Assembly (NCBI GenBank): GCA_963786135.1
Contig: CAWAYF010000025.1
Span: 20,572-84,571, forward strand
DNA: 64,000 nt
Direction of reading: 5' to 3'
From: an uncultured Verrucomicrobiae bacterium
GTDB taxonomy: Bacteria; Verrucomicrobiota; Verrucomicrobiia; Chthoniobacterales; UBA10450
Positions 14,381-49,728 of the stretch are shown here, piece after piece. How positions within the stretch are numbered: the first letter of the stretch is position 1; each line of letters begins with the position of its first letter. The notes under the pieces are model-generated. The model did no database searches and was not told where the DNA came from. It saw nothing but the letters and a program-made list of their open reading frames with translations. The translations under genes and the position numbers were made by a program.

Positions 14381-14413
14381 TCCTTTAACGCGATCCAGTG
14401 AGGTCGCGAAGGA
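14381..14413 (+). promoter_or_regulatory. PyrR-box-like hairpin occluding the pyrR ribosome-binding site
   Basis: TCCTT-TAA-CGCGA-TCCAGTGAGG-TCGCG-AAGGA. The loop resembles the PyrR binding consensus (A/G)UCCAGAGAGG with one mismatch. The 3' arm AAGGA (14409..14413) is the likely SD, 5 nt before ATG 14419. Confidence 0.5.
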
Positions 14414-14418
14414 TGTAA

Positions 14419-15901
<1,483 letters not shown>

Positions 15902-15905
<4 letters not shown>

Positions 15906-17185
15906 GCGCGACCATCATTCGCAACGGCCGTATCATCGATCCGGCGAACAAGCGCGATGAGATCGGCGATCTTGCCATTGTCGACGGCAAGATCGCTGAA
16001 CTTTCCGCAATCTGCGATCCGAAATCCGCAATTGAAGAGATTGACGCAAAGGGTCTGATCGTCGCGCCGGGTTTGATCGACATCCACGTGCATCTGCGCG
16101 AGCCGGGATTTGGTCACAAGGAAACGATCGAGTCCGGCGCGCGCGCCGCCGCAGCCGGCGGATTCACGACGATTGTCTGCATGCCGAACACGTCGCCGGC
16201 CGCGGACAATCCGGCACGATCGCCTGGATCAAGGATCGCGCAGCCGAGGCGGCGTGCGTAAATGTTCTGCCAACCGGCGCGATCTCGAAAAATATCGCGG
16301 GCGAAGAACTGGCGCCGATCGGTTCGTTAGGCCAGGCCGGCGTGGTTGCGATCACCGACGACGGTCATTGCGTTCAAAATCACGAGTTGATGCGGCGCGC
16401 GGTCGAGTATGCGCGCATGGTTGGATTGCCGGTGCTCGATCATTGCCAGGATTACAATCTGGTCGGCAACGGCGTGGTTCACGAAGGCTACTGGAGCACG
16501 CTGCTCGGCTTGCCCGGCTGGCCGGCCGCGGGCGAAGAAGCGATCGTGATGCGCAACATTTTGCTGGCGGAACTTTGCGATCATCACATTCATTGCCAGC
16601 ACATCAGCGCGGCCGGCAGCGTGCGGCTGATTCGCGAAGCGCGAGCGCGCGGCGTGAAAATCAGCGGCGAAGTTTGTCCGCATCACATCGCGCTGACCGA
16701 CGAAGCGATCCAGAACTTCGATACGAATTACAAAATGAATCCGCCGTTGCGATCGCAGACCGACGTCGATGCAATCCTCGAAGGAATCGCCGACGGCACG
16801 TCTGTCGATCCTGTGCTCGGATCATGCGCCGCATGCCGAATTCGAAAAGGAAGTCGAGTTCGATCAGGCGCCGTTCGGAATCGTCGGACTCGAAACGGAG
16901 CTCGGTTTGTTCATCGATCTGCTCGTCCACAAGCATCGCAAGATCGACATTACGCGTTTGATCGAGATGTATACGATCGAACCGGCGAAACTCTTGAAGC
17001 TCGAAGCCGGAACATTATCGGTCGGCGCGCCGGCCGATGTCACGCTGATCGATCCGAATCTGGAATGGACCGTGCAAGTCGATCAATTTCAATCGCTCTC
17101 GCGCAATTCGCCGTTCGACGGATGGAAATTGAAAGGCCGCGCGGTGCGAACGATCGTCGGCGGGAAAACGGTTTGGAAATTGTGA
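15902..17185 (+). CDS. pyrC: dihydroorotase, two or more frame breaks
   Basis: [16 protein letters not shown]...[15 protein letters not shown]...TTIVCMPNT, then ITDDGHCV...CPHHIALTD...KMNPPLR (ORF 16342), then DHAPHA...FGIVGLET...[16 protein letters not shown] (ORF 16769..17185). Confidence 0.85.
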
Positions 17186-17256
17186 GCTGTGGTGGCAGCC
17201 ATCGCCGGCTGCAGATTTGAAGGCGATTGCAGGCGAGACGCCTGCCTTCACAGAGA

Positions 17257-17716: not shown

Positions 17717-17815
17717 AAAAATCGCGGAACTCTAAAATACAACAGCACGCGTCGCCTAGGCAAAGGAAATTCAGAGTGGCGCACCCGTGCCGGCGAGAAG
17801 AATCCTTCCGCGAAC

Positions 17816-19149
17816 CTAGGAAGACAGCGCAAATTTTCGGTCGATCAAGCGCTGCAGATGGTCCCCGATGGCCGGTTGATCGAGACGCTGAATGACTTCA
17901 TTCAAGAAGCCGGTGACGAGCAGACGCTGGGCGACTCTTGGCGGAATTCCGCGCGAGCGCAGATAAAACATTTCGTCTTCGTTGATCTGACCGGAGGTGG
18001 CGCCGTGGGTGCAACGGACGTTGTCGGCCAGAATTTCCAGACCGGGCATCGAGTTCGCTTCGGAATCGTCGCTCAAGAGAAGGTTGCGAACTTTTTGATA
18101 GGCATCGGTGAAATGCGCATGCGGTTCGACCCGGATCAGTCCGCCGAACGTGCAACGCGCCTTATCGTCGAGCGCATTCTTGTAAAGCAGATCGCTCGCG
18201 GTGCGCGGCGAAATGTGGTCCTGCAACGTGCGCGAATCGAATTCCTGATCGTTGGTCGCGACCGAAACCGCGAGCATGTCGCTGCGCGCGCCTTCACCGA
18301 CTAGCCGGCTCAGACCTTCGAATCGCGAGTAACGCGCTCCGAGATTCAAATTCAAACTCATCGCCGACGCGTCGTGATCGACAGTGGTCGAGTTCATTTG
18401 CAACGCGATCACTTTGCTGGCCCCATTCCTGCGCGCAAACATAAGTAACTTTCGCGCCCGGACCGGCGATCAGATCGTTCACGCCACAGGCGAAACCCGC
18501 GCGCTTGCTGATCACACGAGCGAAAATGTTCGATCACAGTCACTTTCGCCAGCTCGTCGGTAACGAGAAGCAAGTGCGGAAAGATCGACATGTTGTCGTG
18601 CGCGCAACCAGTGAAAGATCTCGATCGGCAGTTCGATCTCGACGCCACGCGGCACGAAAAGAAACGTTCCATTTGAAACCAGCGCCTCGATGCAGCGCGG
18701 CGAACTTCGCCGAACCGAGCGTTGCTTCGGTCGACATGAAATATTTTCGGAAAAGATCGGCGTGCTCGACCATCGCGCGCTCGAGCGGTTGAAAAATCAC
18801 GCCGCGCTTTTTCAGATCATCGGAGACGACGTTACGTTCGACCAGTTGATCGTTCGCGAAAATCATGCGACCGGCTACTTCGTCGAGACCGCTCGAGTAT
18901 TTCAGGATATTTTTGCGGTCGTCTTCCGAAAGTGGACCCGGAATTTCGAATGCGCGACAGATCGAGAAGATCGACATTGGAGAAACGCCAGGGCTGATCT
19001 TTGCGTATCGGACGCGGAATCGATTCGAATTTCTTCCAGGCCGCCAGCTGTTGTTCGCGAAACCAATCAGGCAAGTCACCGCGACTCAACCAGGCCCGAG
19101 AGGATCCCGAGAGGACTTTAGATTGCTTCTCCTGTGTAACTGACGGCAT
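17816..19149 (-). CDS. sufD: Fe-S cluster assembly protein SufD, three or more frame breaks
   Basis: The N-terminal piece is ORF 18832..19149 and the middle pieces are ORFs 18540..19079 and 18409..18672. The C-terminal piece, ORF 17816..18442, has the SufD-typical ...LSDDSEANSMPGLEILADNVRCTHGATSGQINEDEMFYLRSRGI. Confidence 0.8.
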
Positions 19150-19180
19150 GTCGATTTTTGCGGCAAACCGCCGCTCGGCG

Positions 19181-20594
19181 TTAACCGACCGAGCCTTCCA
19201 TCTCGAGCTCGATCAAACGCTTCAGTTCGACCGAATATTCCATCGGAAACTGGCGGACGAGATCGTTAACGAATCCGTTCACGCTCAAGCTCATCGCCTG
19301 CGCTTCGGTCAAACCGCGCTGCTGCATGTAGAAAATTTGTTCGGCGCTTACCTGGCGAGACGCTCGCTTCGTGCTGGACTGCGTTGCCGGTTCCGCGAAC
19401 GGTGATTGCCGGATAGGTGTCGGTCCGTGAAGTCGCGTTAATCAGGAGCGCGTCACATTCGGTGTTGTTTTTGCAATTCTTGAGATGCTTCGGCACGTGG
19501 ACGAGCCCGCGATAGGTCGCGCGGCCTGTGCCGATCGAGATCGACTTCGAGATGATGTTCGATGTCGTTTCGTCGGCGGCGTGAATCATTTTCGCGCCGG
19601 TGTCCTGGTGCTGGCCGTTGTTGGCCAGCGCGATCGAGAGCACTTCGCCGCGCGCTTTGCGGCCTTTCAGTACCACGCCCGGATATTTCATGGTCAGACG
19701 CGAGCCGATGTTGCAATCGATCCACTTGATCTCGGCGTCTTCGTGCGCGAGGCCGCGTTTGGTGACCAAGATTGAAAACGTTGGCCGACCAGTTCTGCAC
19801 GGTGATGTATTGGATCTTGGCGCCCTTGAGCGCGACCAGCTCGACCACCGCGCTGTGCAGCGTGGCGGTCTCGAACTTCGGCGCGGTGCAGCCTTCCATG
19901 TAAGTCACTTCGCTGCCTTCGTCGGCAATGATGAGCGTGCGTTCGAACTGGCCGAAATTTTCCGCGTTGATCCGGAAGTAAGCCTGCAGCGGATGTTTCA
20001 CCTTCACGCCGGGCGGCACGTAAATGAACGAGCCGCCGCTGAACACCGCCGCGTTGAGCGCGCTGAATTTGTTGTCGCCGATCGGGATGACCTTGCCGAA
20101 CCATTTCCGGAAAATTTCCGGATGATTTTTCAGTCCCTCGGTCGAACCGACGAAAATCACGCCCTGTTCGCCGACCGCTTTCTTGATGTTGGAATAGACC
20201 GCTTCGCTGTCGAACTGCGCTTCGACTCCGGCGAGAAATTTCCGTTCCTGCTCCGGAATGCCGAGCCGCTCGAATGTGCGCTTGATGTCTTCCGGCACTT
20301 CTTCCCAAGTGCGCTTCGGCTGCATCGCCGGACGCGAGGTAATAACGGATTTTGTCGAAATCGATCGCCTCGAGATCCTTGCTCGCCCAATGCGTCGGCA
20401 ATGGTTTCTCCAGAAAAGTTTTCAGACCGCGAAGACGGAATTCACGGACCCAATCCGGATCTTCTTTGACGTCGGAAATGTAGTGGATGGTTTTCTCGCT
20501 CAACCCGCGCCCGGCGTCCTTGGCGTAGGCGACGTCGTAATGAGAAATCGCCGATGCTGCGATCGATATTAACGGCTTTGGTTTCAGTTTTCAT
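19181..20594 (-). CDS. sufB: Fe-S cluster assembly protein SufB, three or more frame breaks
   Basis: Manual start MKTETKAVN... at 20594. The pieces are ORFs 19694..20503, 19453..20325 and 19266..19769, plus a terminal segment ...[45 protein letters not shown] ending at TAA 19181..19183. Confidence 0.85.
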
Positions 20595-20602
20595 TATCGG
20601 TC

Positions 20603-22243: not shown

Positions 22244-22350
22244 GACGATTCCGGAGACTGAATTCAGGTCACTTCATGTAGTCGGACGCACCGCGGCGAC
22301 GACTAGTTGTCCTTTCACGTGACGTCGGCGTAGCCCGAAGATTTTTCGAG

Positions 22351-22369
22351 GTTATTCTTGGTTCGAATC
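22351..22369 (+). repeat. decayed third copy of the tRNA-Gln variable/T-arm segment
   Basis: GTTATTCTTGGTTCGAATC versus GTTATTCTTGGTTCGAGTC in the tRNA (one mismatch). The flanks do not fold into a tRNA. Confidence 0.5.
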
Positions 22370-22409
22370 GTTGCGCTTTCACCCAAAACGGACAATCTAG
22401 GTAGTCCGT

Positions 22410-22483
22410 TGCCCTGTGGTGTAATGGTAACACAGCGCCCTTTGGAGGCGTTATTCTTGGTTCGAGTCCAAGCGGGGCAGCCA
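22410..22483 (+). tRNA. tRNA-Gln (anticodon UUG)
   Basis: Hand-folded 74-nt cloverleaf: acceptor TGCCCTG/CGGGGCA (U1:A72, G73, encoded CCA), D arm GTGT-AATGGTA-ACAC, anticodon arm GCGCC-CTTTGGA-GGCGT, 4-nt variable loop, T arm CTTGG-TTCGAGT-CCAAG. Confidence 0.85.
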
Positions 22484-22752
22484 TCCAAATTCCCCTCTAA
22501 TTCTCGCGCTAGGAAGAAGATATGTCGCAAATGCGCGATTTGGACTTTGCGAATGGAAACGCACAAAAATGCAGTCTATTCGTCAACTATTCGGCACAAC
22601 ATTTTGAGCGGTGAAACCGTTTTGAACTCTGATGGAACGCGAACCTGTTCCAGCCTGCTGACTCGTTGAGTTGAAACAACTGATCCAGAATCAGTCAATC
22701 TTTCACAAATCCTTGCGCAAGTGGATCGATTAACGCCCGATCCCTCGAGAGA

Positions 22753-23001
22753 TTAGTCCAACGCGGCGGATAAACACTCCGCAATGCCTAGAAACGTCGC
22801 AAGCGCAGCCCACCGAGGAAGCGCGCAATCGTTGACGACGGCAGGCCGCCCTGCTGCCTGCCCGCTGAGCAGACGAACGTCGCGAATTACTTCAGTCACC
22901 CGGGCTTGCTTTCTTTCCGCGGCCAGCACGACGGTGACGACCATGATCACGGAAAGACTGACGACGGCAACGAGACTTAATTTTGGATGCAATGTTTTCA
23001 T
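22753..23001 (-). CDS. membrane-anchored FecR-N-terminal-like fragment protein
   Basis: 82 aa with a TM helix (LSLVAVVSLSVIMVVTVVLAA), followed by ARVTEVIRDVRLLSGQAAGRPAVVND. This repeats the start of the FecR-like domain of ORF 28405..29235 (ARVSQVFRDVSLLRSNAAASPASLND). The remainder is not FecR-like. Confidence 0.45.
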   Translation of the reverse strand: MKTLHPKLSLVAVVSLSVIMVVTVVLAAERKQARVTEVIRDVRLLSGQAAGRPAVVNDCALPRWAALATFLGIAECLSAALD

Positions 23002-23016
23002 TACGGTCGTCGCCTC

Positions 23017-23979
23017 CTAAAACTTGACCGAGAATTCAAGGGCACCGCCAGCGTTGCCCACATTGTAGTCAAACTGGTCCTGGTTCGAATCGCTGTGGGC
23101 AAACGAGCTGATGGCACTAATCCAACACCAGTCGGTGACGCGATAGGTGGCCGTGGCTGAAATGATTTCACTGATCTCGTTGCGGCCGTTCTGGTGGTAA
23201 TCGCGCACCACGAAACGGCCGACTGCTCCAATGGAAAATGCCCGAGTAAGATCGACTGAATAGCCGATGTAGCTCTCATAATCGTTGCGGCGCGGCGATT
23301 GATGGTCCGCGGCCACGCTGAGGTAGGTGTCTGCACCCACGGTGACTTGCTGGGCGCGGCCAAACCGAAATGGCAGCTCCGCGTCGAGAAGGATCTGGTG
23401 ATTGGAAAAAAATTCGTCGCCCAACCGGTCGCCGTTGGTGAGCCGATTGAAATCGTACCAGGCCCGTAACATTACATTGTGAAACTGCGGGAGAAAATAA
23501 GTGAGACCCGCCTGGCAATCGAGGCTGGCGAAGTCGAACGAGGTGTATTTGCCGTAGTAAAAAACCTGTTCCTGTGCGCCGAGATGGGCATAAAGATTCT
23601 GAGCAATTCTCGGATCGTAAAAAGCGGACACCAGCGGGGCAATTATCACGTCGCTGACCTCGCCGCTGTTTGTGAGCGCAACGTTTGATGTGTAAAAAAT
23701 CGGCGTCGAGAACGACGCGGTGAACGGCTGGTACGTTTCGGTGCGCTTAAGAATTTGCTGCTCGCCTAAATCAGCATCGTTGGGACTGGGCACCACCTGA
23801 TCGCCAATCACTCCACTGTTAGGCGCCGTAGACTGAACCAGTGGTTGGTTTTGGGCTTGCACCAGCGCCACCTGATTTAGCTGAACAATCTGCGCTCGGG
23901 CAGGAAGCAGGGATGCGATTAGAAACACCACGGCTGCCCACCCTGCGGAACAGAAAATTCTTAGGCGGAGCTTTGTCAA
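23017..23979 (-). CDS. outer-membrane beta-barrel protein (porin-like), family unassigned
   Basis: Signal peptide (AAVVFLIASLLPARAQ), an alternating amphipathic pattern rich in Tyr/Gly/Asp, and the C-terminal beta-signal ...GGALEFSVKF ending in Phe. Its ATG overlaps the stop of the giant ORF (ATGA). Confidence 0.6.
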   Translation of the reverse strand: MTKLRLRIFCSAGWAAVVFLIASLLPARAQIVQLNQVALVQAQNQPLVQSTAPNSGVIGDQVVPSPNDADLGEQQILKRTETYQPFTASFSTPIFYTSNVALTNSGEVSDVIIAPLVSAFYDPRIAQNLYAHLGAQEQVFYYGKYTSFDFASLDCQAGLTYFLPQFHNVMLRAWYDFNRLTNGDRLGDEFFSNHQILLDAELPFRFGRAQQVTVGADTYLSVAADHQSPRRNDYESYIGYSVDLTRAFSIGAVGRFVVRDYHQNGRNEISEIISATATYRVTDWCWISAISSFAHSDSNQDQFDYNVGNAGGALEFSVKF

Positions 23980-26900
23980 TGTGTCCCTGGAGCTATCGGC
24001 ATGGTCGAGGAGAATCGCCGGGCTCCGCTAATCGGTACGTTTTTTCTACCGCCAGGCAGAATCACTTGCTCGGTCGCGTTAGCAGAGGTAGGAGTGCGAG
24101 AACGAGCTGCTTGGTTCGGAACGTTGATCTTTCCGCCTGGACCGGGATTGAAGCCATTGAGCAGCGAAAGCAGCTGCCCGGAATTGGTCACGTTAATCGC
24201 ACCGCCTTTTGCGTTAACCGACGAAGTGACGCCACCGCTCGATGAGGTTTGATTACTTACCCCTGTCGTGCTGCCGGAAGAGGATGGGCTAGGAGGAGTG
24301 GCCCCGAACGTTGGTGCATTTCCCAGAGGTTGCGGGGTGTTGGCGCCATTGCCAGCAAACGTTCCCGTGGTAGAACCGTTTCCGCCAAAGCCAGTGTAAT
24401 TGGCGTTGTTAGTGTAGATGTTGGCCGCGCCGCCGTTGCCCGCGATAGTAACCGTGACCCCGGAATTAATCGTGATCCTATTAGCCGCCAGGTCCATTTC
24501 CGTGCCGCTGCTCAGCGTGACGTTGGCAACAAACTTCAGGAGCCCGTTGCTTCCGGGCGCGTACAGTTTGAGAAGTGTATCGGCCGAAATCGTGTTGCTG
24601 CCGCTCCCACCGATGATCAAGCTGCCGTTGGCGCCGAAAACCCCAGCTTGCACGACGTTGGCATGAATATCCGTGTTGTTGAACGTGATCGTGCCGTTCC
24701 CATCGATTGTATTGAAAAACGTTCCACCGATCTCATACGTCCCGCCGTTGAAATTGATAGCCGCTGATCCGGTCGGATCGGGACCAAGAATCTGAACCGT
24801 GGCCTCATTGTTAACCGTTGCGGTACCCGAGACATTCATGTTGATGGTTTCGTTTCCGCCGACAGAACCACCGCTGCTGCTATCAATCACCACGAACAAA
24901 TGATCGGCGTTAAGATTTCCCGTCGTTCCGACTTGGACGGTCGCATTCCCACCAATCGTGCCCCCGATATTCTCGATAAAGGCTTCGAAAGTGCTCCCAG
25001 CCGTCAAGCTTGCGGCGCTGACATCCACTGACGCGTCGGATTCGATCGCTCCCGGGTTGTTGAAGAGTCCGAAAAATAACAAGCCTCCGGTGCTAACGTC
25101 GCCGGTCGCATTGAGGGTCAACGCCGCCTTTCCTCCAATGGAACCGCCGTTGGAATTAACGATTTGAGCGACAAAATCCTGCGCGGCAGAGATGTTTGCC
25201 GTCTGAATGTTCACCGTGGCGTCAGAACCTATGACTCCTGCATTTGTGCCGCCCGCGTCGTTAAAAATTTCGAAATGCCCGTTCCCGGCTGCGTTATTAG
25301 CCCCTGTGCCCGGTTGTATGGTAAGGTTTCCAGACAGCGTAAAGTTAATTGCAGCGCTACCTTGAATCGTCCCACCGTTTTCGTTATCGATAATTGCGTT
25401 GAGGTTACCGGCAGTAGAAAAGTTAGTCGCGCTTACATTGATTGCCGCGTTGGAACCGATGAAGCCTCCATCATAATTGTCGATTTCGAAACGCGCATTC
25501 CCGACGTCGTTAACGTCTCCCGTAATATTAAATGTGATACCGCCTCCGGAACCAATGGTGCCCCCGGTGTCATTCTCAATGAGTCCCTCAAGGACGTGGC
25601 CGCACGACAAACTGCCGTCTACGCTTACGGAAATATTTCCTCCCGTTGTAATAGTGCCACCCTCATTGAAAATCCCAGTCGCAAAGGAGCCGAAATCTTC
25701 GGTGCCATTCGTTTGCACATTGTTGTCAAACGTCAGGTTGATATTGCCGCCGGTTCCTATCGTTCCGCCAGTTTCGCCTCCTGCGATGTTGCCATTATCC
25801 AGGAAAAAGTTGAGGCTGTGAAAATTTCCTGAAGTTTCCGTAACGTCGCCACCGAAACTCCCGCTAATATTTCCGCCAGTAGTGATCATGCCTCCATTGG
25901 CGTTGGCGATTTGCTCGGAAAACGTTCCGTTCAGCATGGTTGTCCCGGTAACATCCAACGTTACGTTGCCGCCGCTGTTGATCATGCCGCCAGTGGAATT
26001 GTCGACGAAAAGCGACAAGCTCGTGTTGGACGCGCCACTGATCGAGCTTGCCAAATTCAGGTTACCCGTCACCGTCACCGAACTATTTGCACCGGTTGTA
26101 ACTGTTCCACGGTTGGTCACCTGAAATAACGATGCCCCAGTTGTCGAACTGTCCGTGTAGTCGCCGCTGACATTTAATGTGACGCTAGCGCCATTTGCGA
26201 CCGTTACCCCCTGAGCCACAGCTGTAGTGAAGTTCAGCGGTCCATTTAAAGAGAATGCTCCGCTGATTTGCGCATTGAGATCGCCACCTTGAGTCGCCGC
26301 GTCAAATTCGTTCACGCTTAGCGAGCCGGCATAATCGAATTGAATCGATCCCGGCGCTGACAGCGAGATCGTGTTTGCACTTATCGTCACCGGATTGTTC
26401 AGCCCGATGTTCACGTCGCCCGCGCCGGTGATGGTCAGTAGATCGCAAGACAAAAACGCGCCATCGATCGTTATCGTTGGCGTCGAACCCGCGGGATCGT
26501 TTTGGTCCATCGTAATGGTACCGCGATCCGCCTCGATCGTTCCGTTAACAACAATGTCGGCACCCATGGTCGACAGGGTGATCGAACCGCCCGGTCCCGG
26601 CGCGTTCGCGTTGAGCAATGAAAGCAATTGCCCGTTTGCACCGACCGTGATTCCGGTGCCAGTGGTGAGATCACTTTGCAAATCAATCGTCCCGCCGCTG
26701 GCGCTTTGCCGTGGGGCCTCAGAATCATCGGACGAGACCTGGATAGTATCGTTTACGGTCACCATGCCTGCGGTCGATAGCAACGTGACCGAGCCGCCCG
26801 CGCCGCTGTAGATTCCGGGAGCGCTATTCAATCCTGTTGTCGCGGTAATGTCGGTACCGTTATTGGCCGTGATGTCACCAGTCGTGTTGACAATAAAGAC

Positions 26901-28364
26901 CCCGCCATCGCCGCCGTTGGCCGGGCCGCCCCCGCTGAAACTTCCAGCGTCAGCGCCGTTGAAGTTGGTGTTTCCGATTCCGGTCTCCGAATCGAAAGTA
27001 ATGGTGGTGGCGTTAATGGTCAGCTTGCCGCCCGAGGAGAGACCATCAATTCCGTCGAATTGGTTCCCGCTGTAATCGATCCCTGCCGGTGAGACGATGG
27101 AATTGACGTTAAAGGTCTCCTGCACGGCCGCGCCGCCGGGGCTTTCAACGAAAGCTCGGATTCCATTCGAGCCGACGGTTAGAACCCCGTTCGGCGCATC
27201 GATTGTTACAACATCGACACCGTTTGCCGTGATATTGCCGCCGGCGGTAACTGTCCCGAACGCCCCGAGCTGGCCGGCCACATCAATTGTCGTTCCAGCC
27301 GTCATGTTGCTTACGAGAGCGTTACCTCCAATGGAAATGAAAGTGCCCGCCGTCAGCGTACTGATTCTAACGTCGCTCGCGGCGGTAAAGGAACCGTCGC
27401 CTGTCACCGTGTTGCTCAGCGTATTATTAAGAACGTCGAGGCCGTGGACACTGATGTCGCCGACCGAAGTCAGCGTCAGATCGCCGGCAACGAAATCGAT
27501 GGTCGGCGCCTGAAATCCGCCGCTTCCGGCAGTGAACAAAACCGTGGCGGTGCCGAGATCGAACGTGGTTGGGTTGATGCTGCTCGTGATATTAATGGTG
27601 GTGCCCTGCGCCGTAAGGGACGTCCCAGTGAAGGTACTTGTGCCGCCATCGTCCGGATTGAGCGTGGCGTTCAGCGTGCCACCGGCGATAAAGGTAAGGT
27701 CGCCTGTCGGATTCGGAAATTGACGGGCATCGATATTCAGGTTGGAAAGCGATTCAATATCGATGGTTTGCGCGGTGATCATTCCCGTTCCTGCGAGAAA
27801 ATCGCCGCCGGAAAACGATCTGAATTCCGTCGTGGCGGTTATGTCCCCGTTGATCTGGACCGTGCCCTCAGAATCCAGATGCACCACATCGGCGCCTGAA
27901 ATCGGACTTGCCAGCGTCAGGTTGGAACCAGTGCCGCGCGCGTAAAAAGTGAGATGTGAAATACCGGAAAATGCGATATCGGGACCGAGAGTGATCGAGC
28001 CGCTTTGCGTTGCGATAAAAAGTCGATCGAGCCCAGCGAAGGTTAAGATCGTCCCGGCGGGCGCAGCTGAAGTAACATCCCCAACGCTAACCAAACCGAG
28101 GAAGGTTGTGGCGCCGCTCGGGATGGTAATGGTTGGGTCCCCGGTCAGCTCCAGACTTGAAAACTTGAATACCGCTACCGGGACCCCGTTCCCGTTCGTG
28201 TTGAAGAATTCCCCTATGGTCGTGTCGAACGAGCTCGTCGAACCAAAGAGGTAATCAAATTCAGACCCGTCCAACGCCGGGCCTCGGTAAATCTTGCCGA
28301 AATCAGTTGCGCCATTGGTCGTGATCAATGGATCGGTATTGATCTGCGTCCCGCTGGTTATCAC
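23976..28364 (-). CDS. giant Gly/Thr/Asn-rich repeat protein (predicted beta-helix/adhesin-like), no signal peptide at the annotated start
   Basis: Intact 1462-aa ORF (GTG start) with no Cys-rich or catalytic motifs. It has about a dozen degenerate units of roughly 40 aa (..DN.xGGxIxSGGNIxL..) and the motif GQLLSLLNxxxPGPGG twice. The frame stays open upstream into the 3' end of the FecR-like gene. Confidence 0.7.
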   Translation of the reverse strand: MITSGTQINTDPLITTNGATDFGKIYRGPALDGSEFDYLFGSTSSFDTTIGEFFNTNGNGVPVAVFKFSSLELTGDPTITIPSGATTFLGLVSVGDVTSAAPAGTILTFAGLDRLFIATQSGSITLGPDIAFSGISHLTFYARGTGSNLTLASPISGADVVHLDSEGTVQINGDITATTEFRSFSGGDFLAGTGMITAQTIDIESLSNLNIDARQFPNPTGDLTFIAGGTLNATLNPDDGGTSTFTGTSLTAQGTTINITSSINPTTFDLGTATVLFTAGSGGFQAPTIDFVAGDLTLTSVGDISVHGLDVLNNTLSNTVTGDGSFTAASDVRISTLTAGTFISIGGNALVSNMTAGTTIDVAGQLGAFGTVTAGGNITANGVDVVTIDAPNGVLTVGSNGIRAFVESPGGAAVQETFNVNSIVSPAGIDYSGNQFDGIDGLSSGGKLTINATTITFDSETGIGNTNFNGADAGSFSGGGPANGGDGGVFIVNTTGDITANNGTDITATTGLNSAPGIYSGAGGSVTLLSTAGMVTVNDTIQVSSDDSEAPRQSASGGTIDLQSDLTTGTGITVGANGQLLSLLNANAPGPGGSITLSTMGADIVVNGTIEADRGTITMDQNDPAGSTPTITIDGAFLSCDLLTITGAGDVNIGLNNPVTISANTISLSAPGSIQFDYAGSLSVNEFDAATQGGDLNAQISGAFSLNGPLNFTTAVAQGVTVANGASVTLNVSGDYTDSSTTGASLFQVTNRGTVTTGANSSVTVTGNLNLASSISGASNTSLSLFVDNSTGGMINSGGNVTLDVTGTTMLNGTFSEQIANANGGMITTGGNISGSFGGDVTETSGNFHSLNFFLDNGNIAGGETGGTIGTGGNINLTFDNNVQTNGTEDFGSFATGIFNEGGTITTGGNISVSVDGSLSCGHVLEGLIENDTGGTIGSGGGITFNITGDVNDVGNARFEIDNYDGGFIGSNAAINVSATNFSTAGNLNAIIDNENGGTIQGSAAINFTLSGNLTIQPGTGANNAAGNGHFEIFNDAGGTNAGVIGSDATVNIQTANISAAQDFVAQIVNSNGGSIGGKAALTLNATGDVSTGGLLFFGLFNNPGAIESDASVDVSAASLTAGSTFEAFIENIGGTIGGNATVQVGTTGNLNADHLFVVIDSSSGGSVGGNETINMNVSGTATVNNEATVQILGPDPTGSAAINFNGGTYEIGGTFFNTIDGNGTITFNNTDIHANVVQAGVFGANGSLIIGGSGSNTISADTLLKLYAPGSNGLLKFVANVTLSSGTEMDLAANRITINSGVTVTIAGNGGAANIYTNNANYTGFGGNGSTTGTFAGNGANTPQPLGNAPTFGATPPSPSSSGSTTGVSNQTSSSGGVTSSVNAKGGAINVTNSGQLLSLLNGFNPGPGGKINVPNQAARSRTPTSANATEQVILPGGRKNVPISGARRFSSTMPIAPGTH

Positions 28365-28404
28365 GTATGGATTGGGCGACGTTATCGTGGGCAGTGGCCC
28401 AAAC

Positions 28405-29235
28405 TTACTTGGCGGGGCGGTCGGTGACGGCGATGCCGACGGTCCGGGCGTGGGCGGTGGTTATGTTAGGATTTGAAGTCGTGTTTACGGAGATTACATC
28501 GACCAGGTCTTTTAATGGTGGCTGAGTTGTTCCAGGGTTTAATTGCGCCGTCTGCTGCTCATCGATCACCTGCAAAATCAGCGGTAGATTGGCCAGATCA
28601 GGAAAGCCAACGATCAACTGCGATGTCTCGATCACGGTTTTGACATTAAATGTTCCCTTCACCAAGTGACCGTTGGCGTCGAGGGTTACCATTTCTCCGC
28701 CGTGCAAAGTAACTGCCTTTTCCGGATGACCGATCGGATAAAAAGTGCCGACGCCTTCCAGGACCATGAACTTTGCCGGCGGCCCGGTTCCAAACATGGC
28801 GGTACCGCCACTGACAGCTGCTGTAGTCACACTGGAGATGATCTTAGCGGAAGCAGCTCCAGGCGGGACCTCCAGAAGGACAGTTCCGTGCTCCACACGA
28901 AGCTGGCGAGTTCCCTCGTTAAGACTGAAAACCGTGTTTTCGCCAAGACGCGTAATCGTCAGGTCGCCAAATGTCAGCTCTGCTCTTGATTGTCCCCCGG
29001 TTCGTACGGCCATTCCCAGCCTGACTTCATCGTTTAACGAAGCAGGACTCGCTGCCGCGTTTGACCGCAACAAACTTACGTCGCGAAAAACTTGAGAAAC
29101 TCGTGCGCTTTGCAGCGGTGACGCCCCGTCTGCCGCTGATAATGCGAACACGCATGCGGAAAGTGCCGAATAGCGGATCAATAACCGCCGCTTCAAAGCA
29201 TACCTGTGCCCACGAGTCGTGTCTGCGGTTTTCAA
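28405..29235 (-). CDS. FecR-domain protein with signal peptide/anchor
   Basis: LLIRYSALSACVFALSAADGA, then a FecR-like core: ARVSQVFRDVSLL...VRTGGQSRAELTFGDLTITRLGENTVFSLNEGTRQLRVEHGTVLLEV...AAVSGGTAMF. Confidence 0.7.
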   Translation of the reverse strand: MKTADTTRGHRYALKRRLLIRYSALSACVFALSAADGASPLQSARVSQVFRDVSLLRSNAAASPASLNDEVRLGMAVRTGGQSRAELTFGDLTITRLGENTVFSLNEGTRQLRVEHGTVLLEVPPGAASAKIISSVTTAAVSGGTAMFGTGPPAKFMVLEGVGTFYPIGHPEKAVTLHGGEMVTLDANGHLVKGTFNVKTVIETSQLIVGFPDLANLPLILQVIDEQQTAQLNPGTTQPPLKDLVDVISVNTTSNPNITTAHARTVGIAVTDRPAK

Positions 29236-29597
29236 GGTCGAACCTCCTCCGAAGGCCGAAGTATGGCTGAACCAGACTTGGGCGTCTTACCATTTGCGGG
29301 ATCAACAATCGAAACTGACGAGCCGCTTCCCGAAATTACGAGGTTGGTTTCGATCAACTTGCTGTTCGATTTCTCTTCTTGCTGGCTTTGGATTATTTCA
29401 TTTCCTATCCTGACCGGATCGCCAACTAAAGCAGCCCGGCGCCCGGCGTCGTTGGTCACCAGATCCGCTTCTTTGACGATGGCTGTAACTCGTACCTCTT
29501 GAGAAGTGGCGCTTGCGATTGAAAACGGAAAGATGGGCGGAGCAAGAAGTAACCCCGTCAGCGCGAAACATCTGCGAATTCTGGGACGTGTACCCAC
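29232..29597 (-). CDS. small secreted FecR-N-terminal-like protein
   Basis: 121 aa with a signal peptide (CFALTGLLLAPPIFPFSIASA), then VRVTAIVKEADLVTNDAGRRAALVGDPV, similar to the FecR-like starts of the two other genes. ATGA overlap with the next gene. Confidence 0.5.
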   Translation of the reverse strand: MGTRPRIRRCFALTGLLLAPPIFPFSIASATSQEVRVTAIVKEADLVTNDAGRRAALVGDPVRIGNEIIQSQQEEKSNSKLIETNLVISGSGSSVSIVDPANGKTPKSGSAILRPSEEVRP

Positions 29598-30058
29598 AAA
29601 AAGGGACGCCTTTTTTGGGGTTTAGATATTGATAAGTCAAGCTTAAGCCTGGTGGCGTGACACCGGAGATGCAGACTAAGTTTTTTTGCTGTGTGCCACT
29701 GATTACCTAGGCAAGATCAAAAGCGTATTCGTCCGCTTACCGGGGGTCAAAGATTCGCGCGAATGATCGACAATAGCGGCTGGCATAGCTGCTGCAATCT
29801 TGTGATCGGGGTTGACTTTGAGTTGTGTTCCGAAACGCGGCGCAGAATCAAAACACGCACCGGCCTCAATGTTAGGCACAGCTGGCCTAAAGACGATGCC
29901 ATCCTTATGGCAGCTGATTTTACGCGATTAACAAATCTGCAATACGTAAGTGACTGGACCTGAGGGCCGATGGCCCTTGCCGTCTCCGCCGTTAATTGGT
30001 GTTGGCACGAATGCTGGTAATAGCGGACTCGAAGTGAGTGCACCGAAAAACAAAAAAT

Positions 30059-30234
30059 ATGCGACGAGCGGGAATCCAAAACATTCCAGCTCCAAACGCA
30101 AAAAGGAAAGATTGATCCGCCTCGATGATCTGATCCCAAAACAGAACGTCACCGGCGGTCGTCAATTTTTGTTCGGCGTCACTGACGCAGTACAAAACAC
30201 AAAAACAATAAACAACCCAAAACAAGAAAACTGA
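30059..30234 (+). CDS. candidate small peptide 1 with ...DDLIPKQNVTGG leader-like segment; needs one A-run repair or a TTG start
   Basis: The frame of ORF 29950..30234 encodes ...KRKKERLIRLDDLIPKQNVTGG-RQFLFGVTDAVQNTKTINNPKQEN. The only ATG (30059) is in the +1 frame, and it would join if the A5 run at 30100..30104 were A6. Confidence 0.35.
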
Positions 30235-30235
30235 T

Positions 30236-30424
30236 ATGTCGAAGAAAACCAAGAAAAACATCAAAGTTCGTGACCTCAACCCAAAGAAAGACGCTAAAGG
30301 CGGCGGCGTGGCTGTCTCCGGCGGCGGTGCTGCCGTCTCCGGCCATCCCTCCCTAAGCGGCAAAGGCCCGGCCCCACTGGGCGGAGGAGCGTCGGTGAGT
30401 GGCAAAGGTCCAAGCACCAATTGA
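30236..30424 (+). CDS. candidate small peptide 2: Lys-rich KGG leader plus Gly/Ser/Ala-rich core
   Basis: MSKKTKKNIKVRDLNPKKDAKGG-GVAVSGGGAAVSGHPSLSGKGPAPLGGGASVSGKGPSTN, followed by an 8-bp GC hairpin (30435..30442 / 30458..30465). Confidence 0.5.
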   Translation: MSKKTKKNIKVRDLNPKKDAKGGGVAVSGGGAAVSGHPSLSGKGPAPLGGGASVSGKGPSTN

Positions 30425-30507
30425 TGTATGACAGCCGCGCCGGAGGTTCTATTCCGCGGCGCGGTCCCACGTAGGAAAAATTAAACCCAACTAGAAACCC
30501 AACCCCA

Positions 30508-30664
30508 ATGAAAAAAGCCAATAAGAAAATCAACGTTCGTGATATGAAGCCGAGGAAAAATCCCAAAGCTGGCGGCATCGGAAAGCCCGCTCCGCAAGGC
30601 ATCGGCAAACCCGCCCCGCAAGGCATCGGCCACCCCGCCGCAAGGCACGCCGAATGTGAACTAA
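30508..30664 (+). CDS. candidate small peptide 3: Lys-rich KAGG leader plus (GIGKPAPQ)x3 core; frame broken in the third repeat unit
   Basis: MKKANKKINVRDMKPRKNPKAGG-IGKPAPQGIGKPAPQGIGHPA.. The third 24-nt unit reads GCCG where unit 2 has GCCCCG. When repaired, the ORF ends ...PQGTPNVN at TAA 30662..30664, just before a terminator. The unrepaired track ORF runs to 30825. Confidence 0.5.
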
Positions 30665-30682
30665 GATTTACTCGGCAGTCGC

Positions 30683-30719
30683 GCCGCGCCCCGGTTAATT
30701 CCGCGGCGCGGCTTTTTTT
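30683..30719 (+). terminator. intrinsic terminator after peptide 3
   Basis: GCCGCGCC (30683..30690) pairs with GGCGCGGC (30705..30712) and is followed by T7 (30713..30719). Confidence 0.7.
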
Positions 30720-30747
30720 GTACTTTCGGTATCCGAAGCTGGCGCCG

Positions 30748-30915
30748 TTATGGGAACAGACCCCGGATTTTCTTTGCCCGCATTACGCGCTCGACGCCGA
30801 TAGCCATCGCGGCGGTGCGATGTGAAATCTTGTGCGCCTTGGCGCGCTTGATCACCTGGGTGAAGGAGTGCTCCAGGATTCGGAACAACTCCTTGTTGGG
30901 CTCGAACAATCCCAT
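30748..30915 (-). pseudogene. orphan 3' fragment of a Glu/Leu/Phe/Val dehydrogenase-family gene
   Basis: Manual translation gives MGLFEPNKELFRILEHSFTQVIKRAKAHKISHRTAAMAIGVERVMRAKKIRGLFP*. This matches the conserved C-terminal helix region of small GDHs (..F..V....K.I..R.AA...A..RV..A...RG). An in-frame stop lies about 45 nt upstream, and no N-terminal part is present. Confidence 0.55.
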
Positions 30916-31237
30916 GCGCACGCGCGAGGATAGTCGTTCACGGTTGTTTTCTACGGTTGGTCAATTTTTTGGAGCAAAACTGCGCAAAATCCCGACACGT
31001 GGTGCAAACCACTCCGATGATCGACACCTCTGAAAAACAGGCTATGCAAATGCGCGAAAAACTGCGCAAAAACTCGTTAGGCAATTACAAATCAGGTGCT
31101 CTATCAGGCTTAGACAAGGCCCTAGGGCAAGCTCGGCGGGGACAAAGCATAGGACAGGCGTTTTACAGCGATGGAGCAGGTTCCCTGGGTGGATACGGGG
31201 GTCAATTCTTAAATTCACCGCCCGAACAACGCCTCGG

Positions 31238-31277
31238 GGAGGCGTTATTCTTGGTTCGAGTCCAAGCGGGGCAGCCA
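31238..31277 (+). repeat. partial tRNA-Gln copy (3' 40 nt), putative attR
   Basis: GGAGGCGTTATTCTTGGTTCGAGTCCAAGCGGGGCAGCCA is identical to 22444..22483. Weaker similarity extends about 12 nt further 5'. No acceptor 5' strand or D arm lies upstream. Confidence 0.8.
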
Positions 31278-31443
31278 ATTATCTGCTCGGCGCGGGACTC
31301 GGCAGCGGAAACGCAAATGTTGCCGACGGTGAAGCGGTCGAGGGGACGCTCGCCGATGGCGATGCTGCCGATGGACTCGGCGACGCCGTGGGCGTCGGAG
31401 TCGGCGGCGGCGGAATAATATTTTCCCAGTGATGCAGGGGCAC

Positions 31444-31588
31444 GGTCGCGCCGCCGATTTCCTCAACTAATTTCTGACAGCGTTCCTGGAGCTTGTCTAA
31501 ATTTGGCGGCCAACGGGAGGCGGTCGCGCCGCCGATTTCCTCAACAGTTTCTGACAGCGTTCCTGGAGCTTGTCTAAATTTGGCGGCC
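31444..31588. repeat. 78-bp tandem duplication at the 3' end of the GH75-like gene
   Basis: GGTCGCGCCGCCGATTTCCTCAAC..TTTCTGACAGCGTTCCTGGAGCTTGTCTAAATTTGGCGGCC occurs at 31444.. and 31522... The copies differ by one substitution and one 1-nt indel (CTAAT versus CAGT). Confidence 0.8.
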
Positions 31589-32703
31589 CAAACGGCGTGT
31601 CAGCCGTTCCGGGAAAAATCAAATACGTCACTTTCAATTCGCTGACCGGTCGACTGTAAGGCGTGGATTGGGGATTGATTTCTTTTGCGATCCGAAACGA
31701 GGCTTCGCCAACTTTATCGTTCGGTCCGATGTCTCCAACAATCGCCGGATAAATTCCATCACCGAAAACGACAAGCGCGTAGTCGCCAGTCTTCGCTCCA
31801 TCCCGGTCGTGCGCGAACGCGCCCGGAATCACGATGTAGGGATCGGTCGTGCCGATGAGGAAGCTGTATTTCTGGAGCGTAGTCACTTCGGCCCGCAATT
31901 GCGTGATCGCGTTTCGTAAATCGCGTTTGCGATCCGGCGGAGTTGTCTTTGCATTGAATTCGTCTTCGGCCTTTTTCAACCGGTCTTCGGTGGCGGCGAG
32001 ATACGGATTTGGCGCCGGCGTTTTCTTCGACCAACGATAACTGGTGAACGGCTTGAAGTTCGTCGGCGCACCGGTCCCGACCGGCATCCGGTCGCTATCC
32101 GAACCATCACAATCGACATCCATGTCGGCTTGAAGCAGGAGCGCTTTGCGATGGGTTTGGGGGTGCTGCAATTGCAGGATTGTCTGACAATCGAAGAAGT
32201 TGTGACGTGAGAGCAGCAGATCCAGCCGGCTAAGATTCTCGCGCAGCATTCTGAGCTTCGTGTCGTAGAGCTGAGCGAATAACGGCGAGACCGGCTCGGC
32301 CGGGAGCATCGTTGAGAGCCCGGGCAATAGCTCCGGCAGTTTGGGATTCACCTTCGCCAGTTCTTCGATGGTTCGATTCGGCGTCGGCACGCGCGCCTTC
32401 AATTTTAACTCAATTACGTAACTTTCGGGATCGACGCGCTCAGTGGTTGCATCTGCTCCTGGAGTCGGCTCAACAGTCGAATGCAAAGTGATGCCGCTGA
32501 ATAATCGGCCGGTATCAAGTTTACCGGCAATCACCGGCGGTCGCGTGGGCGACGGCTCCGGAGTCGGGGTCGGCGAAGTTTCTCGCGGCGGCGAAGTATT
32601 GCAAACGCTCCTGCGAAATCCAGCGATACAGAATCAAAGCGAAAATTATCGCCGCCAGGAGAACGACCAGTCTTCGCAACGTCCGCAAACTCAGGTTTGC
32701 CAC
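31497..32703 (-). CDS. membrane-anchored glycoside hydrolase family 75 (chitosanase-like) domain protein; frame break near the 5' end and possibly near the 3' end
   Basis: ORF 31497..32534 contains ADMDVDCDGSD, PYIVIPG and GDYALVVFGDGIYPAIVGDIGPNDKVGEASFRIA, which match GH75 signatures. ORF 32521..32703 supplies a TM anchor (RLVVLLAAIIFALILY). With a 1-nt repair in the duplicated block, the frame runs on to TAA 31279..31281. Confidence 0.65.
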
Positions 32704-47966: not shown

Positions 47967-48695
47967 TCATTTTACACCATCGAAAAAGCATAACCCGGCT
48001 AGATGATTTGCGTGAGACCGTGCCAGCGCAGCGATCTCCCGTTGATCAAACCTTGTCGCAGTTATCGGAAATTCGCTATCTAAGGCCAATACACCGACGA
48101 CTTTATCTGTTTCCAAAATGGGCACCGCCAATACCGATTCTATTTGAGAGACAAACGGAATCTTCTTTCGATGCACAGTATTGATAGGGCTCTGAAAACG
48201 AACATTGTTCTTGTCGTAAATAATTATATTTTTCTCCGACCAAGCTCTTCCGATAGCGCCCTCGCCCTTCTTGAACTTCATTCTTAGCTCGTCGTTAGAA
48301 AACGCTGAGCCATCAGGCGTCCTAAAATAGTAAATCTGCAGACGCCAAGCATAACGCCACGTTCGTTTTGGCAGGGAAAGATTGGCGCGAATTGGCGGGA
48401 TCGTGGCAGCACCTTTAATTTGCTTGTAGTAGTCGGTAAGCAAACCGCCCAGCTTCAATTCGATCACATCCCGCCTTTGTTCGACTTTACTCCTACCAAC
48501 TGGTTTACGGCCCGTTAAGATCCATTGCTGAATGAGAAGCACCAAGGTTAAGGCAATCAATACCCTTAATCGAGATGACTCACCGATGTAGCTGTTGTCT
48601 TTGAGCCATCCGGTCCAAGCCCACCCCAAAGCGCAAACTACACCTAAAATGACGTTCAACGTGCGCTTCATTAGGGGAAAAAGATTAGCTAACAA
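47967..48695 (-). CDS. two-TM membrane protein with C-terminal GAF-like domain
   Basis: TM helices LNVILGVVCALGWAWTGWL and LRVLIALTLVLLIQQWIL. The GAF-like pattern is KGEGAIGRAWSEKNIIIYD...IESVLAVPILETDKVVGVLALDS. Confidence 0.6.
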   Translation of the reverse strand: MLANLFPLMKRTLNVILGVVCALGWAWTGWLKDNSYIGESSRLRVLIALTLVLLIQQWILTGRKPVGRSKVEQRRDVIELKLGGLLTDYYKQIKGAATIPPIRANLSLPKRTWRYAWRLQIYYFRTPDGSAFSNDELRMKFKKGEGAIGRAWSEKNIIIYDKNNVRFQSPINTVHRKKIPFVSQIESVLAVPILETDKVVGVLALDSEFPITATRFDQREIAALARSHANHLAGLCFFDGVK

Positions 48696-48844
48696 TGCTA
48701 TAGGAAATACATTTTTCGTATCAAGGCGTTTGTTAGGCAGGCTCCTCGAAGATTTAGACTTGACCCTCTATTACGCTGACTGCTGCCGGGGTCATTGACT
48801 TGCAGTTACTTTTCGCGTTATGCCATCTCAATCTAAAGCAAAAC

Positions 48845-48870
48845 AGCCGAGCCCTTGCGAGCTCGGCTGC
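48845..48870 (-). terminator. hairpin downstream of the HEPN gene
   Basis: CAGCCGAGC-loop-GCTCGGCTG. It is a near-copy of the groEL terminator hairpin. Confidence 0.5.
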
Positions 48871-48924
48871 TTGTTAATTGTTGTTTAGGCTCCTTGCCAG
48901 GTCATGCCACGGTTGTGATGGCAC

Positions 48925-49728
48925 TCATTTTTTTGGCAATACGGTATAGAAAAAACTGACATCAGCATCGCAATCCGATTGAGCGTGATGTTGACGCTCG
49001 CTCTTGATCTGAACTTCAATCCGAAATGTTTCACTAATGTCTTTGTCGGAAAGAACAACGGAAAAAGTGTTATCGTCCTGCCATTTTCCCTCGCGCCCAC
49101 CGCTAGTTATCAATCGAAGAGACTTAAGTGGCTCACCCATTGGGTCGCTCGCCGTAACCACAAACTCGACAAGATCTCCAGAGCGCAGGATTTGCTTTGT
49201 CACGATTGCCCGCAGTCGGGAGGAGTCAGGCGTCCATATATTGCCGATGCTGTCTCGGGCACTTTCAATTCTCGGAAAGTAATCCTCCTTCGTTTCAAGC
49301 TTGCTTCGATATCGGATCAATCGAGTCCGTATCTCGCCCGCGATACCTGTCGCGAGATGCTTTTGATGAGGCAATAACTCCCGGCGGTGTGCCTCCGGAT
49401 CCCGCAACTTTTCCAGTTCGTCTAAATACACGCGCATTGTTTTTAAGTCCCCGAGAGCATCCGTGAACTTGTCCCAGTGTTTTTCCAGAATTGTCCGAAT
49501 GTCGAAAAAGTCGGCGTAGTAGATCAGTCGCGCTTCGACTACGCCGCCTTTCTGACGTTTTGCCTCAATGTCCTTGCGTTCAGTCCATTTCAGGACTCGC
49601 TCCGGAGACACCCCGCATTTCGTCGGCCAATCTTCACCGAGAGACTTTGTCAACATCGTGGCGATGAAATCTCGCAACGCGTTTTCGGTATCCTTGAGAA
49701 CTTGGGTGATGTCGATCTGCATGTGCAA
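48925..49728 (-). CDS. Swt1-like HEPN-domain protein with a C-terminal beta-rich domain
   Basis: Intact 267 aa. The N-terminal pattern is LRDFI...GEDW...W..RK...RLIYYADFFDIRTIL..HWDKF, with the HEPN Rx4H motif R-DPEA-H encoded at 49387..49404. Confidence 0.65.
   Translation of the reverse strand: MHMQIDITQVLKDTENALRDFIATMLTKSLGEDWPTKCGVSPERVLKWTERKDIEAKRQKGGVVEARLIYYADFFDIRTILEKHWDKFTDALGDLKTMRVYLDELEKLRDPEAHRRELLPHQKHLATGIAGEIRTRLIRYRSKLETKEDYFPRIESARDSIGNIWTPDSSRLRAIVTKQILRSGDLVEFVVTASDPMGEPLKSLRLITSGGREGKWQDDNTFSVVLSDKDISETFRIEVQIKSERQHHAQSDCDADVSFFYTVLPKK

Follow-up and report, generated by a model that had tools for sequence, protein, structure and literature searches.

An intact tRNA gene accompanied by a displaced fragment of itself is the signature by which islands in tRNA genes (tDNA islands) are mapped, and the Islander definition additionally requires an integrase gene (PMC4383910). 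Here we ask how this signature should be read at a locus where the integrase is missing. The locus lies in a stretch of 64,000 nucleotides (nt) from contig CAWAYF010000025.1 of an uncultured Verrucomicrobiae bacterium of the order Chthoniobacterales, hereafter called the window. Its tRNA-Gln(UUG) gene is followed, after 8,754 nt, by a perfect 40-nt copy of the 3′ end of the same gene, which is located beside a convergent GH75-like gene. A sequence-only reading of the window had proposed that the interval between the two copies is an old, immobilised element in which everything is accessory. We conclude that the interval is a degenerate, decayed tRNA-linked island at an insertion hot spot, similar to a cis-mobilizable element (CIME), and that it is not a foreign island. 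This island was probably created by an integrase-mediated insertion into tRNA-Gln, after which the integrase and nearly all of the element DNA were lost, native sequences refilled the interval and the whole became inert.

A displaced copy of the tRNA-Gln 3′ end

The tRNA-Gln gene is the only tRNA gene that ARAGORN predicts in the window, and an Rfam search of the window gave no match besides it. The last 40 nt of this gene (GGAGGCGTTATTCTTGGTTCGAGTCCAAGCGGGGCAGCCA) occur exactly twice in the window, in the same orientation (Table 1), and none of 100 dinucleotide-preserving shuffles yielded a second copy, even when three mismatches were allowed. Similarity between the two sites reaches 12 nt further to the left, such that 52 nt can be aligned at 90% identity. 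Neither ARAGORN nor a comparison of the two copies revealed a tRNA 5′ half at the second site. Exact search, alignment and tRNA prediction therefore agree with what the sequence-only reading had described. A segmental duplication of the tRNA region was rejected as the origin of the repeat, since the DNA to the right of the two copies is unrelated.

The right copy also has a distinctive flank on its island side. The hexamer AACGCC (31228-31233) is the perfect complement of GGCGTT in the repeat, and the two can form a pseudo anticodon stem around an unrelated 7-nt loop. The corresponding flank in the nearest available genome, L027 (described below), reads AAGGCC, which keeps five of the six pairs, and the surrounding sequence is otherwise unrelated to that of the window. 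Pseudo anticodon stems of this kind in both genomes are as would be expected for the symmetric core of a recombinase site.

Empty and occupied sites in related genomes

Both tRNA-Gln and the GH75 gene are present in 27 species-level loci. The two genes directly adjoin in 10 of these, and the genomes with such empty sites include L003, L005/L006, L017, L018, L021, L022, L028 and L091. For example, the order in L003 is SufC, a response regulator, a cyclic nucleotide (cNMP)-binding histidine kinase, tRNA-Gln and the convergent GH75 gene, with no repeat. The gap between tRNA-Gln and GH75 is 1.4-7.6 kb in 13 loci and only about 0.5-0.6 kb in four. In one of these four (L029), a second and decayed copy of the tRNA 3′ end lies at a distance of 340 nt from tRNA-Gln. 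The flanks of the window are syntenic on both sides with those of L001, L003 and L027. When the loci are aligned on the 3′ end of GH75, the full tRNA of the empty site in L006, the fragment in L027 and the fragment in the window share the same position base for base. It follows that the right copy represents the native 3′ part of the tRNA gene, now displaced, whereas the left copy belongs to a regenerated gene. Thus, the empty-site comparison that the sequence-only reading had called for places tRNA-Gln directly beside GH75 in relatives, and the fragment stands exactly where the full tRNA is found.

Other genomes carry recognizable mobile elements at the same tRNA. A 363-amino-acid (aa) Phage_integrase gene starts 122 nt after tRNA-Gln in L002 and is followed by a helix-turn-helix gene and small open reading frames (ORFs). 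In L023 (13323-18207), a 4.9-kb interval with a 36-nt tRNA-Gln repeat at its ends encodes a rolling-circle replication protein (REP_ORF2-G2P) and no integrase, and L096 has a 58-nt tRNA fragment beside GH75. The blocks of identity (36, 38 and 40 nt) share their limits, with the anticodon loop or its 3′ stem on the left and CCA on the right. Tyrosine integrases that target tDNA are known to use this part of the gene as one class of sublocation (10.1101/2020.11.02.365908; Islander, PMC4383910). Judging from these loci, mobile elements of the clade do use tRNA-Gln as a target. Occupancy is likewise varied in metagenome contigs that contain the identical 40-mer (among the states seen are empty sites, a PilT-like ATPase, a kinase and an autotransporter-like gene), and a search for this core in viral contigs gave no match. 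Given the direct repeat, the empty sites and the real elements at the same tRNA in relatives, the attL/attR geometry proposed earlier is supported, and the tRNA-Gln/GH75 junction behaves as a long-lived hot spot of insertion and rearrangement.

The replication protein in L023 is of the filamentous-phage type, and its interval may be an integrated single-stranded DNA element that relies on a host or trans-acting recombinase.

A decayed third copy of the T-arm segment (22351..22369), just upstream of tRNA-Gln, had been taken as a hint of repeated events at the locus. The likeness is real. However, the T-arm-like stretch and the next 30 nt up to tRNA-Gln are conserved in L001, L005/L006, L008, L095 and L027, some of which have empty sites, and it follows that the stretch predates the island and is an old upstream feature of the tRNA. 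Because it is conserved in relatives with and without insertions, we rejected it as a sign of repeated events in this genome. No internal degenerate att copies that would mark tandem elements rose above the shuffle background.

A native gene cluster occupies the interval

Most of the interval (6.9 of 8.75 kb, positions 22829-29718) is collinear with, and orthologous to, a conserved chromosomal cluster of surface-protein genes, and the copy is cut short on its left side. In relatives, the cluster comprises a FecR gene (~270-315 aa), a giant FecR protein gene (1819 aa), a beta-barrel gene (320 aa) and another FecR gene (~270 aa), and it sits between a GT2 glycosyltransferase gene and LysM/ThiF genes. 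The true orthologues of the island genes are found in L084, where the cluster is on the same 1.79-Mb contig as L001 and about 1 Mb from the tRNA-Gln locus, and in L085, where it has the same GT2...LysM/ThiF context. No tRNA was found near the native cluster. Protein identity to the cluster in relatives is 73-94%, the range seen among homologues of the beta-barrel gene, and is similar to the divergence of the core flanks. The FecR-type genes located between the response regulator and the tRNA in L001 and L006 were considered as orthologues and rejected, as their identity is only 27-41% and they are paralogues. As far as collinearity and identity can show, the cargo is native in origin, not foreign accessory DNA, and the proposal that everything between the repeats is accessory does not hold for 22829-29718, which relatives carry elsewhere in the chromosome.

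Base composition leads to the same view. GC content averages 55.3% and is 54.2% in the interval. In tetranucleotide distance, 16% of segments of the same size deviate at least as much. The composition of the interval cannot be told from that of its flanks, an outcome that the sequence-only reading had named beforehand as speaking against an island. Thus, the interval shows neither of two marks of a foreign island, namely a distinct composition and a gene content that is absent from close relatives.

A native-like interior that relatives carry elsewhere might also suggest that the 8.75 kb were wrongly joined into the tRNA-Gln/GH75 locus of a long-read metagenome assembly. In the window, the frames of essential genes (dnaK, pyrB, pyrC and sufB) are broken at many points, as is typical of uncorrected long-read indels, and its closest relatives are long-read metagenome-assembled genomes (MAGs). 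However, a long-read assembler would not be misled by a repeat as short as 40 nt, and the independent L027 assembly has the same split tRNA, the same arm and a fragment beside GH75. Moreover, the cluster copy has a private 441-nt deletion and a truncation when compared with the native copies, and it abuts neither repeat, being set apart by 211 and 134 nt on the left and by ~1.5 kb on the right. We therefore regard an assembly artefact as very unlikely.

No recombinase in the interval

Pfam scans of the large ORFs in the interval gave no recombinase, and only a FecR domain and a weak match to the BBP2 beta-barrel were seen. The DNA that these genes leave unexplained (22484-23016 and 29598-31237) was scanned against Pfam in six frames at E<=1, with stop codons replaced by X, for an integrase hidden by frameshifts. 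No recombinase was found there, and a scrap of a glutamate dehydrogenase (GDH) gene was the sole match. Given these scans, together with a negative tblastn search with the L002 integrase, we rejected the idea of a frameshift-hidden integrase. The rest of the interval is collinear with the non-mobile cluster. Phage, conjugation and mobilisation genes are likewise lacking in the interval, and no cognate integrase lies within the 64-kb window. A rolling-circle Rep (REP_ORF2-G2P), which is present in L023, and morphogenesis genes are absent between the repeats of the window. The sequence-only reading was thus correct in reporting no recombinase, and the island is incapable of moving by itself.

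The lack of a recombinase gene invites the question of whether any integrase was ever involved. A circular or linear DNA carrying about 40 nt of tRNA-Gln could have entered the site by host homologous recombination. Alternatively, illegitimate or end-joining repair of a break could have inserted the cluster copy, and the duplicated tRNA segment would be a by-product. Such routes would suit the interior, in which native pieces end abruptly and are mixed with short fillers, as well as the microhomology-mediated 35-nt deletion right beside the repeat (see below). They suit the junctions less well. Independent relatives repeat the block boundaries (36, 38 or 40 nt, from the anticodon stem/loop to CCA), two unrelated island-side flanks each retain a pseudo anticodon stem, elements with mobility genes use the same tRNA, and a 40-nt direct repeat that restores a gene is not a product of end joining. 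We consider an origin without an integrase to be unlikely.

A sister genome with the same sites and a different interior

The nearest genome, L027 (CAWDGJ010000002.1), is a long-read MAG with about 91-95% nucleotide identity to the window in the flanks. This genome also has an intact tRNA-Gln and a 38-nt copy of its end (38/38) beside GH75, and the same 211-nt arm directly follows the tRNA. Identity of the arm is ~90% including a 10-nt indel, which is comparable to the flanks. The interior of L027 is entirely different, being a 3.35-kb segment with a glyoxalase-family gene, a zinc-ribbon ORF and small ORFs, in which no integrase was found. The arm is absent from empty-site relatives, and no full-arm match besides L027 was obtained in the loci and contigs searched; a 24-mer of the arm had no match in viral and metagenome contigs. 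In L095, which has the same arrangement of response regulator and tRNA, the first ~18 nt of the arm are present in the tRNA trailer, after which the sequences diverge.

Given that the same arm and site pair enclose different interiors, the att pair seems to persist while its filling turns over, and the history of the locus involves more than one old element decaying in place. The proposal of an old, immobilised element is thus sound as to an insertion into the tRNA and the lack of a recombinase. It is not sound as to the contents, which are not foreign, or as to simple decay in place. The arm shared by the two genomes is most simply explained by one ancestral insertion, although there may instead have been independent insertions of related elements with a common arm.

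Two further explanations draw on the turnover of contents. The interval might still be a usable CIME-like cassette, whose intact cores serve as sites for an integrase that another part of the genome or an incoming element supplies. If it could be excised, exchanged or co-transferred in this way, the swapped fillings of the sister genomes would be explained. Such a cassette would fit the definition of a CIME, which has lost its integration and transfer genes and has kept attL and attR (PMC6323972). Moreover, the cores of the window (40/40) and of L027 (38/38) are perfect even though the interiors have decayed, the arm in L027 is the same with a different cargo, and an integrase-bearing element targets the same tRNA in L002. 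However, the 64-kb window has no cognate integrase, the 24-mer of the arm was not found in the metagenome or viral collections, and no circular or attP junction was seen. In addition, a cargo of truncated native genes and scraps has the look of decay rather than of a functional cassette. On balance, a cassette that is still in use seems improbable to us.

An even bolder proposal is that the core pair and the 211-nt arm form a standing ‘landing pad’, at which a trans-acting integrase swaps the contents and takes up pieces of the host chromosome. If true, this would explain both the unrelated fillings at identical site pairs in two sisters and the perfect displaced core, and it would offer Chthoniobacterales a way of moving native gene clusters to a new place or of duplicating them. 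We view this proposal as quite unlikely.

Just past the shared arm, L027 has an inverted fragment (~14560-14617) that resembles the T-arm and acceptor 3′ strand of another tRNA (GGTAGGTTCGAGTCCTAGCGAAGCCA). This fragment may be a second att remnant.

A possible history of the locus

The history that we favour, in which an integrase-mediated insertion was followed by loss and native refilling, can be set out as follows. A Campbell-type site-specific insertion into tRNA-Gln would have taken place in the ancestor that the window shares with L027, or earlier. The enzyme would most likely have been a tyrosine integrase with a site that extends from the anticodon loop or stem as far as CCA. A new 3′ part for the tRNA would have come with the inserted DNA, leaving the gene at 22410-22483 intact, and the native 3′ part would have been pushed 8.8 kb away while still beside its original neighbour GH75. 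Afterwards, the integrase and almost all other element DNA would have been lost, such that only the 211-nt arm and the short pseudo-anticodon-stem flank to the left of the right repeat might still be ascribed to the element. Later events at the retained sites, together with deletions and refilling inside, would have brought in the cluster copy, the GDH scrap, three small ORFs and filler DNA. Both lineages would thereby have ended with the same site pair and arm, and with different contents. It is the role of an integrase as the maker of the junctions, along with the order of loss and refilling, that we infer.

Several observations weigh against this history. There is no integrase or integrase remnant, so the enzyme is deduced only from the geometry and from relatives, and the arm was found nowhere beyond L027, so an element family that owns it is hypothetical. 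The 7-nt loop of tRNA-Gln differs from that at the right copy. Therefore the anticodon loop itself cannot be the region of strand exchange, and the crossover must lie inside the shared block. Furthermore, the right copy is still 40/40 despite an interior that looks old and decayed. At the ~5-9% divergence seen with L027, a neutral fragment is expected to carry a change or two, and the probability of none in 38 nt is about 0.06 by a rough estimate. More recent recombination at the site, gene conversion or constraint may be the reason why the copy is unchanged. Finally, none of the explanations, ours included, accounts for a native cluster between the sites without an extra step.

Relation to known systems and implications

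The locus shares with Islander-type tDNA islands a full tRNA and a 3′ fragment that mark the ends, a block from the anticodon region to CCA, an empty site in relatives and a fragment that lies beside its native neighbour. With regard to the Islander definition, the full tRNA and the cognate fragment are in direct orientation, the length falls within 2-200 kb, the fragment is outside the conserved domain and relatives have an empty site, whereas no tyrosine integrase (PF00589) is in or overlapping the interval. Unlike such islands, the locus also has no phage, conjugation or mobilisation genes, its cargo is a copy of a native cluster and its composition does not deviate.

The CIMEs of streptococci and others, in which attL and attR outlast the integration and transfer genes (PMC6323972), offer a second comparison. 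The likeness lies in the intact putative att cores, the lack of integration and transfer genes, and a sister with different content between the sites, as is expected from accretion and resolution at a shared site. Ancestry from an integrative and conjugative or integrative and mobilizable element (ICE/IME) is not part of this likeness. The differences are that the lineage is Verrucomicrobia, that host-gene scraps take the place of adaptive cargo, and that no cognate integrating element was found for the core-plus-arm combination. Degenerate prophage and island remnants also have an orphan tRNA 3′ fragment, lost mobility genes, internal deletions and a hot spot with varied occupants. However, the core in the window has stayed perfect, and the traceable source of most of the interior is a specific native locus rather than a decayed mobile element. 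The island is not a new kind of system, and its unusual detail is that it consists mostly of a traceable copy of a host gene cluster.

These findings document a tRNA-Gln integration hot spot, with precise junctions and empty sites, in an abundant and uncultured soil lineage. They also demonstrate that a textbook attL/attR footprint can bracket non-foreign DNA, which calls for caution with island finders that use tRNA fragments or composition. Furthermore, the core, the arm and the integrase- and Rep-bearing elements of relatives provide the material with which one could ask whether integrase-less tRNA intervals are exchanged in trans.

Features of the interval and its borders

Table 1. Positions of the tRNA-Gln island, its contents and its borders within the window.
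Feature	Position	Strand	Basis and details
T-arm-like segment in the upstream (promoter-proximal) region of tRNA-Gln	22343..22381	+	24/40 ungapped to att core at 22345; about 22343-22381 when a 2-nt gap is allowed
Intact tRNA-Gln(UUG)	22410..22483	+	ARAGORN; Rfam tRNA 62.3 bits; 3′ 40 nt (22444-22483) are the attL-side repeat
211-nt arm adjoining tRNA-Gln	22484..22694	+	blastn/alignment to L027:14837-14618
134-nt filler between arm and captured cluster	22695..22828		No match in fetched loci; no six-frame Pfam match
Truncated 5′ end (~61 codons) of downstream FecR-like gene	22825..23001	-	tblastn: residues 1-61 of L084 FecR-271 at 23001-22825
320-aa BBP2-like beta-barrel gene	23017..23979	-	Weak Pfam PF10082; 73% identity to L084 orthologue, 94% to P0121
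Giant FecR-domain repetitive protein gene	23976..29235	-	FecR domain; collinear with L084 4545-10004
First FecR-like gene of cluster	29232..29718	-	tblastn with L084 FecR-315: residues 8-108 and 255-315 only
Three small ORFs	29950-30234, 30236-30424, 30508-30825	+	ORF lists, six-frame translation
Orphan GDH 3′ fragment, last ~50 codons and stop	30748..30903	-	PF00208, E=1e-4
Island-side flank of right repeat, pseudo anticodon stem around unrelated 7-nt loop	31226..31237	+	Read from sequence, L027 comparison
attR-side repeat, displaced native tRNA-Gln 3′ part	31238..31277	+	40/40 copy
Convergent GH75-like gene, native right flank	31279..32703	-	Pfam PF07335; orthologues 88-95% identity

The arm includes a possible 30-codon ORF (22522-22614, + strand) that reads MSQMRDLDFANGNAQKC...HFER and follows a Shine-Dalgarno-like AGGAAG. 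In L027, a 10-nt insertion and a 1-nt deletion jointly preserve the start and stop of this ORF in frame. Within the cluster copy, the DNA homology of the truncated FecR-like gene to L085 ends at 22829. The giant FecR gene, which is a single 1819-aa gene in L084, reads in the window as two ORFs (28405-29235 and 23976-28364) owing to a frame change near 28434-28458. The first FecR-like gene has its 441-nt internal deletion at 29387/29391, and both L084 and L085 have those 441 nt.

About 1.5 kb of non-cluster DNA separates the cluster copy from the right repeat, and ~1 kb of this is the small-ORF region. The three small ORFs are arranged in tandem, each with a Lys-rich N-terminal leader (IKVRDLNPKKDAKGG / MSKKTKKNIKVRDLNPKKDAKGG type), after which come Gly-rich or GIGKPAPQ repeats. 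This pattern suggests leader peptides with a double-glycine site. A 24-nt DNA repeat was detected by TRF at 30574-30647 within this region. No Pfam match and no match in any fetched locus was obtained for the three ORFs (29950-30825). The orphan dehydrogenase fragment that had been reported at the right end is real and is the 3′ end of a GDH gene. L112 has a full GDH gene, whose 3′ end shows 81% nucleotide identity to these 155 nt, and the homology stops at the stop codon. The remaining DNA of the interval also includes about 330 nt of further filler.

On the right border, 31279-31281 reads TTA on the + strand, which is the TAA stop codon of GH75 on the - strand, and the last residue of the orthologues aligns to 31282. 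Position 31278 is thus the sole spacer base between the repeat and the stop codon, as the sequence-only reading had stated. This tight spacing arose secondarily. In L027 (11195-11229) and at the empty site of L006, the GH75 stop and the tRNA 3′ end are set apart by a 35-nt spacer with a terminator-like hairpin (GAGACC-GAAG-GGTCTTTT), and exactly this spacer has been deleted from the window between two TGGC microhomologies. As a result of the deletion, the fragment now abuts the GH75 stop.

The frame repair that the GH75 gene had been said to need corresponds to a 77/78-nt tandem duplication at 31443-31588 (1.9 copies, 97% identical, with one 1-nt indel), which breaks the frame and is absent from L027. 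This duplication exceeds the typical long-read indel error and may be a real, recent event. All homologues of GH75 with 80-95% identity come from soil Verrucomicrobia (Chthoniobacterales). Among essential genes, the frame is broken in dnaK (51911-53961), pyrB/pyrC (14400-17200), sufB/sufD (17800-20600) and trmE, and another region at 54820-56211 is also affected, such that the window looks like an uncorrected long-read MAG. Given so many breaks, calls of ‘pseudogenes’ that depend on a single frameshift are unreliable and, like the split of the giant FecR gene at ~28440, may reflect sequencing errors.

Additional observations

The upstream side of tRNA-Gln is variable too, since the presence of a histidine-kinase gene there differs among relatives. 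In L001, L003 and L006 (L003:11478-12670; L001:11708-20556), this cNMP-binding histidine-kinase gene separates the response-regulator gene from tRNA-Gln, and L001 and L006 have about 8 kb extra between the latter two. It is absent from the corresponding position in the window (22244-22409), L027 and L095, and it is unrelated to the repeat.

A conserved non-coding motif of ~100 nt (model R1) was noted in tRNA-Gln-linked insertions of relatives. It has a closing stem CCUAAC...GGUUAGG with two or three compensatory pairs, corresponds to no Rfam family at gathering score and is not present in the window. Its sites are L027:11964-12074(+), L023:15500-15610(-) and 14986-15121(-), L011:13424-13534(-), L082:3491-3590(+), L012 252-2562 (four copies, -) and L110:9423-9509(-).

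Elsewhere in the window, GC content drops locally to 46.6% at 48-49 kb, where one ORF with a GAF domain and one with a HEPN_Swt1 domain are located (47967-49728), and this region may be another accessory or defence-type insertion.

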